Source: Fistulifera solaris (Eukaryota). Taken from it: a stretch of 64,000 bases of DNA. The notes under the pieces were generated by a model. It was not told the DNA's origin. It ran no database searches and saw only the letters and a program-made list of their open reading frames with translations. Positions 4,095 to 40,632 of this stretch are shown here, piece by piece. The translations under genes were made by a program, and so were the position numbers. Where the stretch lies: the NCBI GenBank assembly GCA_030295235.1, contig AP026127.1:1178001-1242000 (forward strand). Reading direction: 5' to 3'. Position 1 is the first letter of the stretch. Each line of letters starts with the position of its first letter.

Positions 4095-5135
4095 ATTGAA
4101 ATACACCTTCTCCACAATTAATGGACCGCCCCAGATTATCTGGACGAATGAAAAACACCGGGTTTGGAGTTACTGGACCAGCCATGATTTTTGTGTGAAT
4201 GAAATACACCTGGTCCAGACTTTCTGAACCAGCCCAGATTTTGTGTACGAATAAAATACACCTGGTCCAGAATATCTGGACCATCACAGAATTTCTGTGT
4301 TAATAAAAACACCTGGTCCAGAATTTCTGGACCAGCCCAGATTTTGTGTATTAATGAAATACACCTGGTCCAGAATTTCTGGACCAGCCCAGATCGTGTG
4401 AATGAACGAAATACACGTGGTCCAGAGTTTCTGGACAAGCCCAGATTTTCTGTGTGAATGCAATACACCTGGTCCAGAATTTCTGGACCAGCCCAGATCG
4501 CGTGAATGAACGAATTACACCTGGTCCAGAATTTCTGGACCAGCCCAGATTTTGTGTATGAATGAAATACACCTGGTCCAGAATTTCTGGACCATCTCAG
4601 ATTTTGTGTATGAATGAAATACACATGGTCCAGAATTTCTGGACCAGCCCAGATCGCGTGAATGAATGAAAAACACCTGGACCAGAATTTCTGGACCAGC
4701 CCAGATTTTGTGTCTGAATGCAATACACCTGGTCCAGAATTTCTGGATTAGCGCAGATTTTCTGTGTGAATGAAAAGCACATGGTCCAGAATTTCTGGAC
4801 CAGCCCAGATTTTCTGTGTGAATGAAAAGCACATGGTCCAGAATTTCTGGACCAGCCCAGATTTTCTGTGTGAATGAAATACACCTGGTCCAGAATTTCT
4901 GGACCATCTCAGATTTTGTGTATGAATGAAATACACCTGGTCCAGAATTTCTGGACCAGCCCAGATTTTCTGTGTGAATGAAATACACCTGGTCCAGAAT
5001 TTCTGGACCAGCCCAGATTTTGTGTATGAATGAAATACACATGGTCCAGAATTTCTGGACCAGCCCAGATTTTCTGTGTGAATGAAAAACAACTGGTCCA
5101 GTATTTCTGGACCAGCCTAGATTTTGTGTACTGTA
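4095..5135 (+). repeat. Tandem array 1 of a 52-bp unit (~20 copies) with a 23-bp palindrome CTGGTCCAGAA-T-TTCTGGACCAG
   Basis: Consensus TGAATGAAATACACCTGGTCCAGAATTTCTGGACCAGCCCAGATTTTCTGTG; period 52 (e.g. 4871, 4923, 4975, 5027). Confidence 0.97.
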
Positions 5136-5463
5136 TGAATTATGAATACTGGACTGTAGTTTAGACTAGAGGTGCAGGCAAAGGGCAAGAAAAGTTCTCT
5201 CGTCAAGTTTAGTACCGGTACGATTGCGTAATTAACCACATGTCGTTTTCAAACTCAACGGCTCTCTTTCGCGGCGAGGAAATTCATTCTCAAGAGTGAA
5301 ATTTTTGCGGCGTCGATGCATGCATTGCCTCTTATTTGTTCACTCACCTCGCTCAGTGAAGCATTTAAAGCTTCGCTAGAGTACGTCATAGAGCTTTCTG
5401 GTTCATCGACTGGCGGTCGTGCATACAAATACGTTGATTTTATTGTGTCCTTAGCACAACAAG

Positions 5464-14710: not shown

Positions 14711-17700
14711 TCACTCGGCTGCGTCGTTGCTGTGAAGACGATCAAACAGTGCATTCGCGGAAACAATTTCCGAGTACAGTGAATCCTCTCCCAAAGGTGT
14801 TTCCGCGAGCCCTCCCATGATCGATGGGTCGGATTTGACGATTGCTAGAGAGACTGGCAGCGGAGGACTTTTGTAGTGCATGCCCATTTTCTTCGAGAGC
14901 TCGTGACAAAATGCTGCTACTTCGGAACGACTCTCTTGAATGGCAAAATGTCCTGCCACGCTAATCGCTATAAAATGATTAGTCGGGCGAATGCAAAGTC
15001 TGCAGAATTAGAAGCAGTTGCGTTCACTTACATGTTGTAAAATCGTGATATATTCTACGTCGGTGAAGTTGTGATCGATACGTTAGAAGAGAAACCCGAG
15101 ACAATCAGAGAAACCACTTACTGATTCTTACCTATGAATCCCTGCTCCACCTGGATTTTCAAAACACGAAAAGTTATGAAGCTAGCCCATTCCCGAGGTC
15201 TATTTCGAATGAATTTCCGAAGAGCCTCTTCGTACACTTTCAACCGCTCGTACGGGACGCTCGTCGAAAACTTCAAATTTATGAACACAACAGCCTTCGG
15301 AGATCTAGCGGCGTTAATGATTCGAGAAGAAGCCATCGACCCGTTGGAGATCGTGGCTCTCTCGTTGTTGGGTTGAAAAATCACAGTCGTCGTGTACAAT
15401 GTGACATCCTTCAGATCAAGTTGTTGTCAGAGCTCGACGGGGGAACAAGGAAGGAACCATTCCAGACTTACCGTCACGATCCATCCAAACGATCCCTCGA
15501 GGCTGGAAAAGCAAAGCACAATCAAATGAGGCAGACATTGATTTACGATTACATCGAATAATATTACTTACTTGGAGTCAGACTGCACATTCGATACGTG
15601 AATCCTGTCGCCAATGTCGTACTACATGGATGATTAGGATGACGCACAACAACGAAGTAAAGGAAACATGTGGACGTACCGGCCGCTGCAGTAAAACCAT
15701 CAGCCAGCCCTCAAACATTCGAGAAGACGCAGAACCAATCATGAACGCGAAAGCGAGTACAAAGGACGACAGGGACAAAAACAGAGCCTTACAAAACATT
15801 CCTGTTAGATCACAATCAAATTTGACACATTCGACATGAACGACTTACCAATGGGCTTAAGCCTAAGAGAGGTGAGGTATCTAAAAAATGCTTTCAAGGA
15901 CTCGAAGCCGAATACTTACCGAGCTGATTCAGAATGATACACAAAGCGATCAAGTAAAAAATGACATCAAAAACGTTCTCGAAAGCCTTGTCAATCTGGA
16001 CGACAAATGTCAGTCACTTTGCTCCAAAGCGCTCAAATACGGTACGATGTAATGATACCTTTCTTACCTTTTCGCAGTTGCGAACACCAGCACTTAGCAG
16101 CTTTGCCTCCTTGTATACAGCATCGAAGCTCTAAAGAAAATGGACCAACAACACAGTTAGGGCGTCGGGTACAATGTAACAGTCAAACGCATATTTATGA
16201 CCAACCTTCACAAAGTCTAAAAGCTTGAGTTTGCCGTTTCGGTCAGGACGTAGGATTCGAATCAATTCCTTCAACGCGACCTCATCCAAGTTACCGTGGT
16301 CATCAATCGCAGCCAGAGCCAAAACGTCGAAAGATATTTCCATCGTTTCTTCGCTTTCCTCATCGAGACCACGAAGCGTCTGAAAAAGCTTTTGAGCATT
16401 TATAACTAAATTTTCTCTCGAGCTGGTCTCCCCAAAAGGAGTACCAAACATAAAACGGTCCTTCAAAACCTTCATCGAATGTCGAAACTGAGAGACAGCG
16501 CTGATGGGTATTGATTCGCCGATGCTATATTCTTTTTCGGGTTCTTCCCAAAAGCCAAGAAGTTCGTTGAGTCTTGTCTTTTCAGCTTGACTCAAGACTC
16601 GGTGTCCCTTAATATCCTCGGGGTCACGTATTATAAGACCATTGCCAGACATAACGTGTATGCTCTCCGATGCGAAGGATTGTTTCGTGGAATTGTCACA
16701 TTTACCTTGCCCTTCCATATCAGAGCCCTCACGTGTTTGATATTGCACCAAATGAATATACTGATCAGGATGGATACGCAGCCGACGTTTATCACGCGTG
16801 CGGCGGCTACAAGTCATTGACCGAGCCGCCTTGTTGGTAGCTACGACCGCCTTGCTTAGCAAGCATATCTTGCGCATCACCCTCGTAAGATCTTCGGCAT
16901 AAAAACGATACGTTTTCCGTCCTAAAGCCAATCCTAGCCATAAGCGCTTGAGCGAGACGACCAGCGTGATTGCTACCGCTATGCAAAGAATGCGAATATA
17001 TAGCTCACTGCTAGGGACCGAGCCACTTGGATTCTGATAATTGAACAACCCGATAACATCTTGCCAATAGGCCCAGTGATCAGCCCATGGGGTCTTGCCG
17101 GATAGAAAGGAGAAATCCAGTATTCCCCAGAAAAAGACAACGAACGGCCATCCTTTTGATTGGACTATGAACAAAGTTGCGAGCCTGCCCACGCATTTTG
17201 GCGCTATCTCAGTGGTCACGCAACAGTAGTCAACAATCATCAGCTGAATCAATGCTGCCGCGCTGAGCAGCGTCAACTGACGGACAATGAAAAGAAGCCA
17301 CCATGATGCCGATGCCGTTTGCGCCTGAAACTCCTCTCCCTTGATGTTCACCAAGGCTGTTTCATTTGTCTCTGGGTCAAAGACAGAAGTGACGTTGTAG
17401 TTCAGAATACCGGTTGAAGGATTGTCAGCCAAATAAAAAAGAATTAACGAAATACCGATCAATGGAGCGACAATCGCTGCATAAACCTTTGCATAATAGC
17501 GCAGTACGCTGGACCGAGACGACAAAAAGCTCACAAATTTAATGATGTGCTTTGGATCCATGCAACTCTGAGCATTTGTTGACATATTATTCCATAGACC
17601 AGTTTGTTTGGGAGTAGATTGGCCTAAATAAGGCGGATGCTCTTGATGTGAGCCAGTCTCCTCTTCATCACATCCTTCCTCAACATGCGATAGTTTCTGG

Positions 17701-19034
17701 TCAACGGTATTTCCCTTATTAGCGCCAAAATCAAATTTTCCACTTTGCTGGCTATGTCTGGACGCGTCGTCATGCCTTCCTTGCTCGATGTCGGTGATAA
17801 CACTACCAGTATCTTCCCTCTCTCTATCTACTTTAGCATTGCGAAAAATCAAAGCAGCATTTTCAGCAAATGTCGCTCCCGAGCTGAGATCCGCTGAATG
17901 AGGCTGGAGCTCTTGCTCCGAAATAGATGGGTTTGCACCCAATTCCTCAAGCACTTCTGTTATTTCCATCAATTGGGACTCTATTGTGTTTTGACGTTGA
18001 TGGGAGCGCCGCATAGATCTTATGTGGACGGGTACACTGCCAGGCGTTTCGTTTCCGGCTCGCTTATCGTCAATAAACGGTTGAAATTCAGAGTCGTCAT
18101 CACTTTCATCGTCCTTGACCTCCGGACTGGATTTTTGTCTGCCGGCCGGTGAAACATTGTTGGTATCGTCTGTTATATTCGTCGTCAACGCGGAAGTGTC
18201 GGTTTCTGCTCTATCTCTGTTGGCATTCTCTTGCTCTTCGAGCACTCTCATGATTAAAGTTTCCGCTTCCGTCTCCAGAGGATTGTACTTCAACACGTCC
18301 TCTAAAACGACTCTCCGAGGATGCGGCGAGCTGGTAAGAAGCGAGAAAGCCGTCGCGTCGCTCAAAGAAATGACACTTTTCGTAGGCCGGTGTGTGCGAT
18401 GCATGGGGTGATCCTTCGACGTTGGATACGAGCCCAGACTAAAATCTTCGGCTCGAGCGCGATGACTCTGTTCGACTTCCAAGAAGATGTTACTACCCAA
18501 CTCGTCACTCCATGATACATTGCGATGGTGATCTCGAGGACGATGCAAGGTGTTTGCAGCAATGTTGGGAATCGACAGATGCATGGGTCGGTTGGTCATG
18601 TCATTCGATGGCAGCGGATTTGTCTCAGTGACCGAATTCTCCAAAGGATGTTCAGCGGCCCGGATGCTGGCTCTTAAATTTGAATAAAAATCATTCGCTC
18701 TAGAGGGATCCGCATAATATCCTTGTTCATATGAAATGCCGGTACTTGAATCATTGTGATCGTTCGCTCTCGTAGTATCGTCGGGGGCATCTTTTTTGGT
18801 CGCTTTGACGAAATCCGGCGACGGCTGATGATTCTCGGACGAGTTGCCGTGTTGCGCCACACTCGGACCGAACAAATCTGAAACAGAAGGAACGGCGCGA
18901 TATGTATTGGACCGTGGGATCGTGCTGGCATTTTCCATGGAAAGATTCGTTACACCCAGAGATTCGAGGCGTTCCATCAACTCTTGTGTAGCGTCGTTTT
19001 CCGTGTCGACTGCATCGGCTGCTTCCGCCGACAT
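14711..19034 (-). CDS. MscS-like mechanosensitive ion channel with EF-hand-like motif; multi-exon 3' part
   Basis: Long disordered N-terminus, multiple TM helices, LRPDRNGKLKLLDFVK, LAFAFMIGSASSRMFEG..LLQRP, YDIGDRI, LYTTTV..NNERATISNGSMASSRIINAARSP and FIRNRPREW. Many short GT-AG introns lie between 14960 and 16205. Confidence 0.85.
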
Positions 19035-19199
19035 GATATCTGTCTTCAATCGATTGTGTTTTCAAATGTAATGCGTCTTATTATGAAAAAGAAAGTCCGC
19101 AAGCTTCGGAAGGATAATAGATCCGCGGAACATTGTTTTGCGGGTTTGCCAAAGAAAAAAAATGGAGCACGGCGCTGGCAGGCGCTGGTCTGGCTGCCC

Positions 19200-20945
19200 G
19201 TCGTCTACGCTTTTTTACACGTAGCTCTCGTACTGGTAGGGAAATTTATCGACAGAGGGGAACCCGGATATTGCCATACTTCGATCACACCTATTTTCGC
19301 GTCTTTCGGACACCAATGACAACAAGACTTTGCCCAACATTGCGCATGTGTGCAATAAAGCAATAATCTACCTCGATTAAACTGTGAAACATGAAACAGT
19401 AAATAAATACAAAGCTTCGAATGTCTACGCGTAATTTACGTAGCCGCCGTGGGAAATTTATCTCTGCAGGGGGTACCCGGATATTGTGTTTTTCTCCGTC
19501 CTCCAATTCTTGGGTTTAAAGTACCCAGATGCCATCGTTTCCTTGTCCACCGTATTTAATTCGTAACCGAAAGCAATCATTGTCATCGATTTGAAAACAA
19601 AATGTTGATTGAATGAATGATGCAACGCTTCGAATGTCTACGGCGTTTCACGTAGCTCTCGTAGGGAAATTTATCGACGGAGGGGAAACCCGGATATTGT
19701 CATACTTCGATCACACCTATTTTCGCGTCTTTCGGACACCAATGACAACAAGACTTTGCCCAACATTGCGCATGTGTGCAATAAAGCAATAATCTACCTC
19801 GATTAAACTGTGAAACATGAAACAGTAAATAAATACAAAGCTTCGAATGTCTACGCGTAATTTACGTAGCCGCCGTGGGAAATTTATCTCTGCAGGGGGT
19901 ACCCGGATATTGTGTTTTTCTCCGTCCTCCAATTCTTGGGTTTAAAGTACCCAGATGCCATCGTTTCCTTGTCCACCGTATTTAATTCGTAACCGAAAGC
20001 AATCATTGTCATCGATTTGAAAACAAAATGTTGATTGAATGAATGATGCAACGCTTCGAATGTCTACGGCGTTTCACGTAGCTCTCGTAGGGAAATTTAT
20101 CGACGGAGGGGAAACCCGGATATTGTCATACTTCGATCACACCTATTTTCGCGTCTTTCGGACACCAATGACAACAAGACTTTGCCCAACATTGCGCATG
20201 TGTGCAATAAAGCAATAATCTACCTCGATTAAACTGCGAAACATGAAACAGTAAATAAATACAAAGCTTCGAATGTCTACGCGTAATTTACGTAGCCGCC
20301 GTAGGAAATTTATCTCTGTAGGGGGACCCGGATATCAGCTACCGTAGATGCCAGCTTACGCTGGATGGCTGCTATGACAGACTTTGCCCAACATTGCGCA
20401 TGTGTGCAATAAAGCAATAATCTACCTCGATTAAACTGTGAAACATGAAACAGTAAATAAATACAAAGCTTCGAATGTCTACGCGTAATTTACGTAGCCG
20501 CCGTAGGAAATTTATCTCTGTAGGGGGACCCGGATATCAGCTACCGTAGATGCCAGCTTACGCTGGATGGCTGCTATGACAGACTTTGCCCAACATTGCG
20601 CATGTGTGCAATAAAGCAATAATCTACCTCGATTAAACTGTGAAACATGAAACAGTAAATAAATACAAAGCTTCGAATGTCTACGCGTAATTTACGTAGC
20701 CGCCGTAGGAAATTTATCTCTGTAGGGGGACCCGGATATCAGCTACCGTAGATGCCAGCTTACGCTGGATGGCTGCTATGACAGACTTTGCCCAACATTG
20801 CGCATGTGTGCAATAAAGCAATAATCTACCTTGATTAAACTGTGAAACATGAAACAGTCAAATATTACAAAGCTTCGAATGTCTAAGCGTAATTTTACGT
20901 AGCCGACGTAGGAAATTTATCTCTGCAGGGGTACCCGGATATTGA
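19200..20945 (+). repeat. Complex tandem array: 9 copies of a ~70-bp core at 213-bp spacing (426-bp dimer), then 202-bp spacing
   Basis: GGAAATTTATC at ~19240, 19452, 19665, 19878, 20091, 20304, 20506, 20708 and 20911; near-identical 426-bp and 202-bp units. Confidence 0.95.
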
Positions 20946-21085
20946 TTTTTTAGTTCCTTTGTATACGCACAACGCGCTCACGACACGCGAGATCGATTGC
21001 AACGGTGTTGCGGAAAAGTCACTATTTTCATTCGAGTGAATAAACAAACCCTTGTCTCTTCTCATTACCTTATTCATCAAATAGA

Positions 21086-21617
21086 ATGGCGCTTTGCTGT
21101 ATAGGAGGAGTTTGCATTCCGTATTCGGCTTTGTTGCCGTTCCTTGCCTACGGTTTTCAATGGCTTTTAACAAAATTGGTTGCTTACGGTATCTTGCCCG
21201 ATTGGCTACACGATCGTCTTCAAGGGATGCTACCTGCTAAGAAAACAACCAAACGACAATCCGAGTCTTGTTGTACCAGCACAACGTGCAGCACTGTCTC
21301 CGATTCCAGTATTACTTCGGTACAATCAATGGAACAATGGGCCGCCATTGTGCAGTCATCCAAGCCGGTGGTTTGCAAATGGACCGCCAGTTGGTGTCAG
21401 CCTTGTAAAAAAATTCAGCCACTCTTCGGAGTCACTTGCGGAAGAAAACGACGGAGTATTTTGTATCATAGATGTCGATGATATGGAAGATCTGGCTTCA
21501 GAATACAATGTGGCTATGATGCCCACTTTTCTCGTTCTCAAAGATCAAGTCGAAGTGGCTCGATACGCCGGTAGCGATGAGAACAAGCTACGGAAGCTTA
21601 TAAGTGAAAATCTATGA
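21086..21617 (+). CDS. Thioredoxin with N-terminal hydrophobic extension (one frameshift near 21425)
   Basis: WTASWCQPCKKI active site; the second frame gives IDVDD..LASEYNVAMMPTF..YAGSDENKL. Confidence 0.9.
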
Positions 21618-39589: not shown

Positions 39590-40632
39590 TTTCTGGGAGG
39601 CCCCAGATTTTCTGTAAGAACGAAATACACCTGGTCCAGAATTTCTGGTTCATAATACAACTGGTCCAGAATTTCTGGACCAAACCTGATTTTCTCTATG
39701 AATGAAATACGCCTGGTCCAGAATTTCTGACACAGCCCAGAATTTCTGTAGGAATGAAATGCACCTGGTCCAGAATTTCTGGACCGCCCCAGATTTCCTT
39801 TGTAATGAAATACACATCGTCCAGAATTTCTGGACCAGCCTAATTTTTTGTAATGAAATACACATGGTCCAGAATTTCTGGACCAGCCCGATTTCCCTTT
39901 GTAATGAAATAGACATGGTCCAGAATTTCTGGACCAGCCCAGATTTCCTGTATGAATGAAAGGTGTAGAATTTCTGGACCAGCCCAGATTTTCTGTACGA
40001 ATGAAATACACATGGTCCAGAATTTCTGGACAAGCCCAGATTTTCTGTAAGAATGAAAACACATGATCCAGAATTTCTGGACCAGCCCAGAATTTTTGTA
40101 GGAATGAAATACACATGATCCAGAATTTTTGGACCAGCCCAGAATTTCTGTACGAATGAAATACACATGGTCCAGAATTTCTGGACCAGCCCAGAATTTC
40201 TGTAGGAATGAAATACACATGGTCCAGAATTTCTGGTTCATAATACAACTGGTCCAGAATTTCTGGACCAAACCTGATTTTCTCTATGAATGAAATACGC
40301 CTGGTCCAGAATTTCTGACACAGCCCAGAATTTCTGTAGGAATGAAATGCACCTGGTCCAGAATTTCTGGACCAGCCCAGAATTTCTGTACGAATGAAAT
40401 ACACACGGTCCAGAATTTCTGGACCAGCCCAGAACTGTACGAATGAAATAACACCTGGTCCAGAATTTTTGGACCAGCCCAGAATTTCTGTGCGAATGAA
40501 ATAAGCATGCTCCAGAATTTCTGGGCCAGCCCAGAATTTCTCTACGAATGAAATGCACATGGTCCAGAATTTCTGGACCAGCCCTGAATTTCTGTACGAA
40601 TGAAATACACCTGGTCCAGAATTTCTGGACCT
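39590..40632 (+). repeat. Tandem array 2 of the same ~52-bp palindromic unit (~21 copies)
   Basis: Same unit and orientation as 4095-5135; includes 30-bp shortened units and an internal block duplicated at a 588-bp offset. Confidence 0.97.

Follow-up and report, generated by a model that had tools for sequence, protein, structure and literature searches.

We have analysed a stretch of 64,000 nucleotides (nt) from Fistulifera solaris (GenBank assembly GCA_030295235.1, contig AP026127.1, positions 1,178,001 to 1,242,000 of the forward strand), hereafter the window, and asked why a short core sequence is conserved nine times over in a tandem array at positions 19200 to 20945 while the spacers between the cores have drifted apart. 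An initial annotation had proposed that the core is selected for an RNA or single-stranded DNA structure, possibly a ribozyme of a retrozyme-like element, and had kept a satellite that only binds a protein as its fallback. Our analysis showed a tandem array with a higher-order organisation, conservation confined to short blocks, and a core that occurs at many other loci in high copy, and it gave no fold or covariation signal above that of shuffled controls. Accordingly, we consider that there is an even chance that the array represents a single locus of a satellite family, dispersed and lineage-specific, in a diatom-like alga, in which a composite box would be kept by putative recognition at the DNA level. 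This explanation lies close to the fallback of the initial annotation.

The array comprises nine cores and eight spacers on the + strand, starting about 12 nt inside a core and ending exactly at the 3' end of another. The anchor 11-mer GGAAATTTATC has nine exact + strand copies between 19240 and 20911. When up to one mismatch was allowed, there were 12 matches in the window against 1.6 expected, and 12 were reached in 0 of 100 shuffles. A profile search of the window with the cores retrieved only the same nine copies, the next match having E = 1.1. The distances from core to core were 212, 213, 213, 213, 213, 202, 202 and 203 base pairs (bp), in agreement with the spacing of 213 and then 202 bp described initially for nine copies. 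Tandem Repeats Finder reported a 426-bp period with 2.6 copies and 98% matches at 19236-20335, and a 202-bp period with 3.8 copies and 98% matches at 20177-20942. These are not nine equal monomers. The array is made up of an edge copy, A1, followed by two and a half A-B dimers of 426 bp that are 98-100% alike, three C units and a worn last copy, C4.

In the left edge core A1 (19200-19273) the 5' block GCTTCGAATG is missing, and an insertion of 6 nt at 19230 is private to this copy. The first dimer (19414-19839) is formed by core B1 (19414-19487), spacer b (19488-19626), core A2 (19627-19700) and spacer a (19701-19839). The second dimer (19840-20265), with cores B2 at 19840-19913 and A3 at 20053-20126, is one base off the first, a T at 19811 corresponding to a C at 20237; in the comparison of units, B1 and B2 were identical and A2 and A3 were one base apart. 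The three C units of 202 bp (20266-20871) have their cores C1, C2 and C3 at 20266, 20468 and 20670. Each is a chimera in which a B-like core is followed by a different 5' spacer part, shorter by about 11 nt, and then by the 3' half of spacer a. No base separates C1 from C2, and C3 departs from them at five positions near its 3' end. The right edge is the degenerate copy C4 (20872-20945), which consists of a core only, with the 5' hairpin arm altered to CTAAG, an extra T in the loop and the sequence CCGACG; besides the broken arm it has three further changes. The two outermost cores, A1 and C4, are the most damaged. As in a satellite, monomers of constant length follow each other head to tail, and neighbouring or higher-order units are nearly identical while the edges of the array are degenerate. 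A coding reading of the core was rejected, since length changes of 1-3 nt and of 6 nt inside it shift the frame. An ATG frame of 82 amino acids on the + strand (19071-19319) runs from intergenic DNA through core A1 and is very probably no gene, because the core length changes leave it unkept in the other units.

Conservation within the units is uneven. Compared without gaps, A2 and B1 share 115 of 213 positions. Spacers a and b were aligned without gaps, as described initially, and were 46.8% identical, that is, roughly half; the shuffle mean was 26.3%, and the observed value was reached in 0 of 5000 shuffles. Because this identity is far above that of shuffles, the two spacers are homologous but old. 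In the same comparison, 50 of 74 core positions were identical against 65 of 139 spacer positions (Fisher p = 0.004), which agrees with the initial description of a conserved core. The three longest runs of identity between the A and B types all lie in the core, with lengths of 16 bp (positions 1-16), 12 bp (38-49) and 13 bp (62-74), and such a set of runs in the core was found in 0 of 20000 shuffles of the match vector. The sequence between the blocks is largely replaced, with windows 11-30 and 21-40 only 35% and 30% identical. The conserved composite box spans about 74 bp, with GCTTCGAATGTCTACG, CGTAGC, GGAAATTTATC, GGGG and ACCCGGATAT as its blocks, and the constraint acts on these short blocks rather than on the entire core.

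Public sequencing runs extended this comparison beyond the window. The contigs of four runs, X1 to X4, were aligned at a likeness of at least 80% to the segment 18000-19640, which reaches from the left flank to the first spacers. The best runs were X1 (share 0.64) and X2 (share 0.60, labelled wetland metagenome), which come from different studies; X3 was weak, and X4 is one of two further runs from the study of X1. In total, 442 contig pieces of X1 and 466 of X2 were aligned, the majority of them below 95% likeness. Summed contig depth, which is not the same as copy number, was 7085 (X1) and 6680 (X2) in the first core bin and 8087 and 7363 in the second, 500-820 and 420-620 in the spacer bins, and 14-50 and 11-39 over the left gene and intergenic DNA at 18000-19209. 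Thus, the core was covered 10-15 times deeper than the spacers, while the left flank remained at single-copy depth up to about 19209. Since the ratio of core to flank is alike in X1 and X2 and contigs run unbroken from the gene into A1, we read the depth as DNA copy number and not as expression; X1, which like X4 is tagged "RNA?" only as a guess, behaves like DNA in its depth profile.

The contigs also indicated how the family varies. Those identical to the window pass from the gene through the intergenic DNA without a break and end at 19265, within core A1. Agreement of the letters after the core is poor in the other contigs (0.44-0.54), which indicates diverse spacers at other places, and many contigs link core to core over spacers that are absent from the window. 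The 6-nt insertion of A1 is left out in most of the family (8105/8433 of the depth in X1 and 8434/8610 in X2), and at 19451 the family majority is A, as in the C type (8528/9714 in X1). A spacer of the b type, about 89% identical, was found in X4, and an X3 contig carries the C-type junction exactly. The core thus belongs to a high-copy, multi-locus family, and its depth points to some hundreds of cores. As the left flank is at single-copy depth up to the first core, the array does not lie within a larger repeated element on its left side.

Based on these results, we propose the following course. An old duplication of monomers of about 200-213 bp would have given rise to the A and B types, whose spacers then drifted apart until about 47% identity was left. 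Amplification would have acted on the A-B dimer and, independently, on the recombinant C monomer, and both would have been kept uniform, probably by unequal crossing-over, because a dimer, a recombinant monomer and decayed edges form the pattern that this process gives; the outermost copies would have escaped homogenisation and then decayed. Across the family, the composite box of about 74 bp would be kept while loops, linkers and spacers drift. We infer that this constraint reflects putative protein recognition of short double-stranded DNA blocks and not an RNA fold, because the short blocks are hard to explain by gene conversion and show no fold signal. Candidates for this role are a chromatin factor, a factor that binds the box, or the apparatus by which the repeat is copied and spread.

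Known systems offer partial parallels to this explanation. Primate alpha satellite dimers with a CENP-B box, as presented in a review (PMC8122249), also have monomers of about nucleosome length and two alternating types that are amplified as a higher-order unit, and in both cases the types within the unit are far more diverged than successive units. In alpha satellite the short box is kept for a protein, a role that is putative for the box of our array. The array further differs in being 1.7 kb long and situated in gene-dense DNA instead of a centromere, in lacking a sequence relationship to alpha satellite, and in that the kept part consists of five short blocks over about 74 bp in every monomer. 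Short satellite-like arrays dispersed in euchromatin occur in Tribolium castaneum (PMC4675708) and, carried by Helentrons, in the Pacific oyster (PMC7492417); they resemble our array in being many and short, with monomers of about 170-200 bp that lie among genes and not in heterochromatin. Our array differs in showing no frame of a mobile element: single-copy DNA borders its first core on the left, and neither a transposase nor a Rep turned up in the 33 open frames scanned. The satellites PpSat1 and PpSat2 of the oomycete Phytophthora parasitica (PMC7290008) are likewise stramenopile satellites with high- and low-copy arrays and with degenerate copies away from the consensus. Their monomers are about 89-91% or more identical to the consensus over the full length, whereas in our family only the box is kept and the spacers diverge below 50%.

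Several points weigh against recognition of the box as DNA. This part of the explanation is reached by exclusion. The depth evidence covers 18000-19640 only and, as stated above, it is expressed as summed contig depth and not as a count of copies. Two features of the core are of the kind that an RNA would show. First, its two length-variable sites sit between the invariant inverted arms CTACG/CGTAG and GGG/CCC, as hairpins would give. Second, one pair of helix 3, the third of four helices derived from the initial annotation, switches from C-G to G-C or G-U between types. The covariation test described below had only five distinct cores and accordingly low power, so that the RNA reading is weakened and not refuted.

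In this reading, the core would encode a small structured RNA and be organised in tandem, much as 5S ribosomal DNA or the genes of spliced-leader RNA are, and the spacers would drift; we consider it unlikely, yet it is the most serious of the alternatives. Arrays of the 5S ribosomal DNA type combine a short conserved segment with a fast-evolving non-transcribed spacer, sometimes of two classes, in hundreds of copies. The array resembles them in the alternation of a conserved segment of about 74 nt with fast-evolving spacers and in its hundreds of copies, which is the general layout of small-RNA arrays. The inverted arms, invariant around loops that vary in both sequence and length, also favour an RNA, as do the GAAA loop closed by the GGG/CCC hairpin in the A type, the single pair that changes on both sides, and the T-runs located no more than 2 nt after the B cores and immediately after C4. 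However, the array departs from the 5S type in having no Rfam match, no consistent terminator, patchy instead of full-length conservation and no fold signal.

The fold was examined against dinucleotide shuffles. For the three core types on both strands, z-scores ranged from 0.11 to 1.23; for whole units they were 0.30 and 0.18 (the 426-nt dimer) and -0.54 and 0.15 (the 202-nt C unit). Cores and whole units fold no better than shuffles. For covariation, the four helices were placed on the alignment of the nine cores, which holds five distinct sequences and has little power. In this structure, 88% of the cells pair and 10 of the 19 pairs never vary. Changes on both sides affect a single pair of the 19, a count that was also reached in 384 of 500 shuffles, and the covariation score was reached by 48 of 500 shuffles; covariation was thus not above the controls. 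In the B and C types, only four of the six pairs of helix 3 remain. RNAalifold retained two hairpins, of 5 and 3 bp, and a single helix of 2 bp (-7.27 kcal/mol); none of their pairs was compensatory.

The individual stems of the initial annotation fared unevenly. The stem CTACG/CGTAG was found around the three loops described; the last copy has a fourth loop, and its CTAAG breaks the stem. The pairing of CTCTCGT with ACGGAG exists in the A type and holds only there. The closing stem AATGTC/GATATT loses pairs in A1 and in the C type. Variant copies from the runs point in a similar direction against the hairpin. Among the 11 of 34 X1 rows listed, nine variant copies could be interpreted by eye, and the 3' arm was intact in five, G-U compatible in one and broken in three; in these three the 5' arm was unchanged and no compensating change was present. 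These counts are an observation and not a statistic. Of the proposed selection on a structure, the first half is supported, a constraint on the core that the spacers lack, in the array and more strongly genome-wide; the second half is not supported, as neither the fold nor the covariation signal exceeded the controls.

Searches for known RNA families gave the same picture. Rfam had no match in the whole window at gathering scores. With cmscan at E values up to 10 over 19000-21100, the search by Infernal that had been suggested initially returned only SNORD100 (E 1.6, 18.7 bits against a gathering score of 58), which is noise, and no C/D box arrangement of a small nucleolar RNA was seen on either strand. 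ARAGORN found 0 tRNA genes in the window. The units C1 to C3 hold no T-run of at least four on the + strand, and the array thus lacks the consistent terminator that Pol III small-RNA genes would have after each copy. Readings as a tRNA-like or short interspersed element, a spliced leader or an Sm-site RNA were set aside: by eye there was no conserved splice donor and there were no A and B boxes in proper order, and ARAGORN was negative.

Relatives outside the runs were also considered and rejected. A core pattern matched public contigs at 29 loci (10 metagenomic, 1 + 2 viral and 16 in prokaryote genomes), which we treated as chance. The nine-core profile matched only the part that the pattern had fixed, none of the loci was in tandem, and the highest score, 15.5 bits, came from a bacterial bin and covered model positions 16-71. 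Three "centromere/ARS" motifs (ARS, autonomously replicating sequence) are given in a preprint that deals with a diatom assembly (10.1101/2021.11.10.468027), two of which share the 9-mer TCGAATGTC with the core. This likeness was dropped as being at chance level; when the whole window was scanned with the motifs in IUPAC code, the array ranked 6th to 12th and unrelated places scored higher. Within the limited collection of literature searched, no diatom satellite family of this kind was described.

A more specific proposal has a small chance in our estimate. The box of about 74 nt, perhaps with some upstream bases, would be the gene of a so far undescribed small diatom RNA, present in hundreds of tandem copies, with a three- or four-way junction, two variable-loop hairpins (one of GNRA type, in the A type) and an invariant single-stranded GGAAAUUUAUC; or the hairpin would act as origin or nick site for the spread of the arrays by a rolling-circle replicon.

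It is decidedly improbable, in a similar degree, that there is no constraint at all and that the shared blocks are leftovers of common ancestry, recombination and gene conversion in a selfish repeat. Recombination does shape the array, as seen in the C chimera, the homogenised dimers and the decayed edges, and single copies tolerate damage to the box, namely A1 and C4. However, the 16-, 13- and 12-bp runs are split by replaced stretches and stand beside spacers that are 47% identical, an arrangement that the shuffles of the match vector never gave. Gene-conversion tracts would hardly account for blocks as short as 6-16 bp with replaced sequence between them. In addition, at a likeness of at least 80% the core is kept in far more contigs than any spacer.

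The position of the array suggests another explanation, to which we attach a slight probability: a cis-regulatory element, acting as a repeated enhancer or as an insulator or spacer, in the divergent promoter of the two neighbouring genes. Of the 2051 bp that separate the start codons of its neighbours, the array occupies 1745, in line with the initial annotation, in which it fills their divergent promoter. Its blocks are of the size of transcription-factor footprints, and two ACGT cores in the hairpin arms are presumably possible factor sites. Nevertheless, copies of this core are present at a great many other sites, and the two genes therefore do not account for its conservation. A weak hint in the same direction comes from the second version of the left gene in X2, which is without a core for 396 nt, assuming that contigs break at high-copy words; the hint is weak because contigs give an incomplete view.

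An open frame of 967 amino acids on the - strand (16131-19034), whose start codon lies 165 bp away, is the left neighbour of the array. The initial annotation had called the flanking genes MscS-like and thioredoxin. For the left frame, MscS/Msy1 likeness was indicated by protein-atlas features only, the nearest cluster being mostly Bacillariophyta, and Pfam gave no match on this frame and three downstream frames; the thioredoxin gene was confirmed by Pfam. The latter lies on the + strand (21086-21617), with its start codon 140 bp from the array, and its domain is split over two frames, with profile positions 6-40 in frame 21086-21481 and positions 46-102 in frame 21171-21617. This points to a frameshift around 21425-21445, due to a sequencing error or a broken gene. 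At 18000-19050, X1 and X2 each carry a second version of the left gene, about 89-90% identical and similar in depth to the window-identical contigs, which would be a diverged allele, homeologue or paralogue; in X2 it continues for 396 nt past 19050, where it is unlike the window. Downstream of the 967-amino-acid frame, at 15118-16130 on the - strand, further open pieces lie in other frames and, judged by eye, resemble membrane proteins, which suggests introns or further frame breaks in the MscS-like gene.

The proposal of self-cleaving ribozymes, in which multimeric transcripts of a retrozyme-like or satellite-type element would be cut into monomers and perhaps circularised, is extremely improbable: only its general form fits, that is, a conserved segment carried in tandem units a few hundred bp long, shared with the hammerhead-bearing elements of plants, algae, oomycetes and metazoans outlined in a review (PMC5680766), whereas no CUGANGA of a hammerhead occurs on either strand of 19150-21000, no Rfam ribozyme model (hammerhead, twister, twister-sister, pistol, hatchet, HDV-like, hairpin or VS) matched at E values up to 10, HDV-like folds not having been sought with a structural descriptor, monomers and dimers are no more stable than shuffles, single-copy DNA bounds the array on the left, and a direct repeat at the two array ends was not seen by eye, without a formal search. 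The initial remark that no canonical hammerhead, twister or HDV core could be recognised was thereby upheld, and the structured-RNA or ribozyme array itself was not.

The surroundings of the array are ordinary gene-dense nuclear DNA, that is, euchromatin, of a photosynthetic eukaryote. Pfam matches in the window included IGPS, a calcineurin-like phosphoesterase, NuoF, a protein kinase, a class II tRNA synthetase, mTERF and MGDG synthase. The scan for transposase, Rep and reverse transcriptase, which found none, covered 33 of the 43 open frames of at least 180 amino acids; the other ten overlap arrays of a 52-bp repeat, are antisense overlaps or had been scanned earlier. This 52-bp repeat is a satellite unrelated to the core and forms two arrays between open frames, at 4097-5139 (about 20 copies) and 39654-40631 (about 19 copies), with 84-86% matches. 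Its consensus contains a 23-bp perfect palindrome, CTGGTCCAGAA-T-TTCTGGACCAG, and the second array has higher-order periods of 134-392 bp. Short intergenic satellites seem to be a habit of this genome.

In summary, diatom genomes are usually described as satellite-poor, and repeat DNA makes up the greater part of a divergent promoter at this locus. Unless RNA evidence is at hand, the ribozyme proposal should not be pursued, and we consider the array to be of modest interest unless RNA data or genome-wide covariation revive the RNA reading. The composite box of 74 bp, which is kept over hundreds of copies among spacers that are less than 50% identical, provides a clear handle for finding what recognises it. 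Candidates are a protein of chromatin, a protein that binds the box, or the apparatus for copying the repeat; less likely, the box may serve an RNA function.

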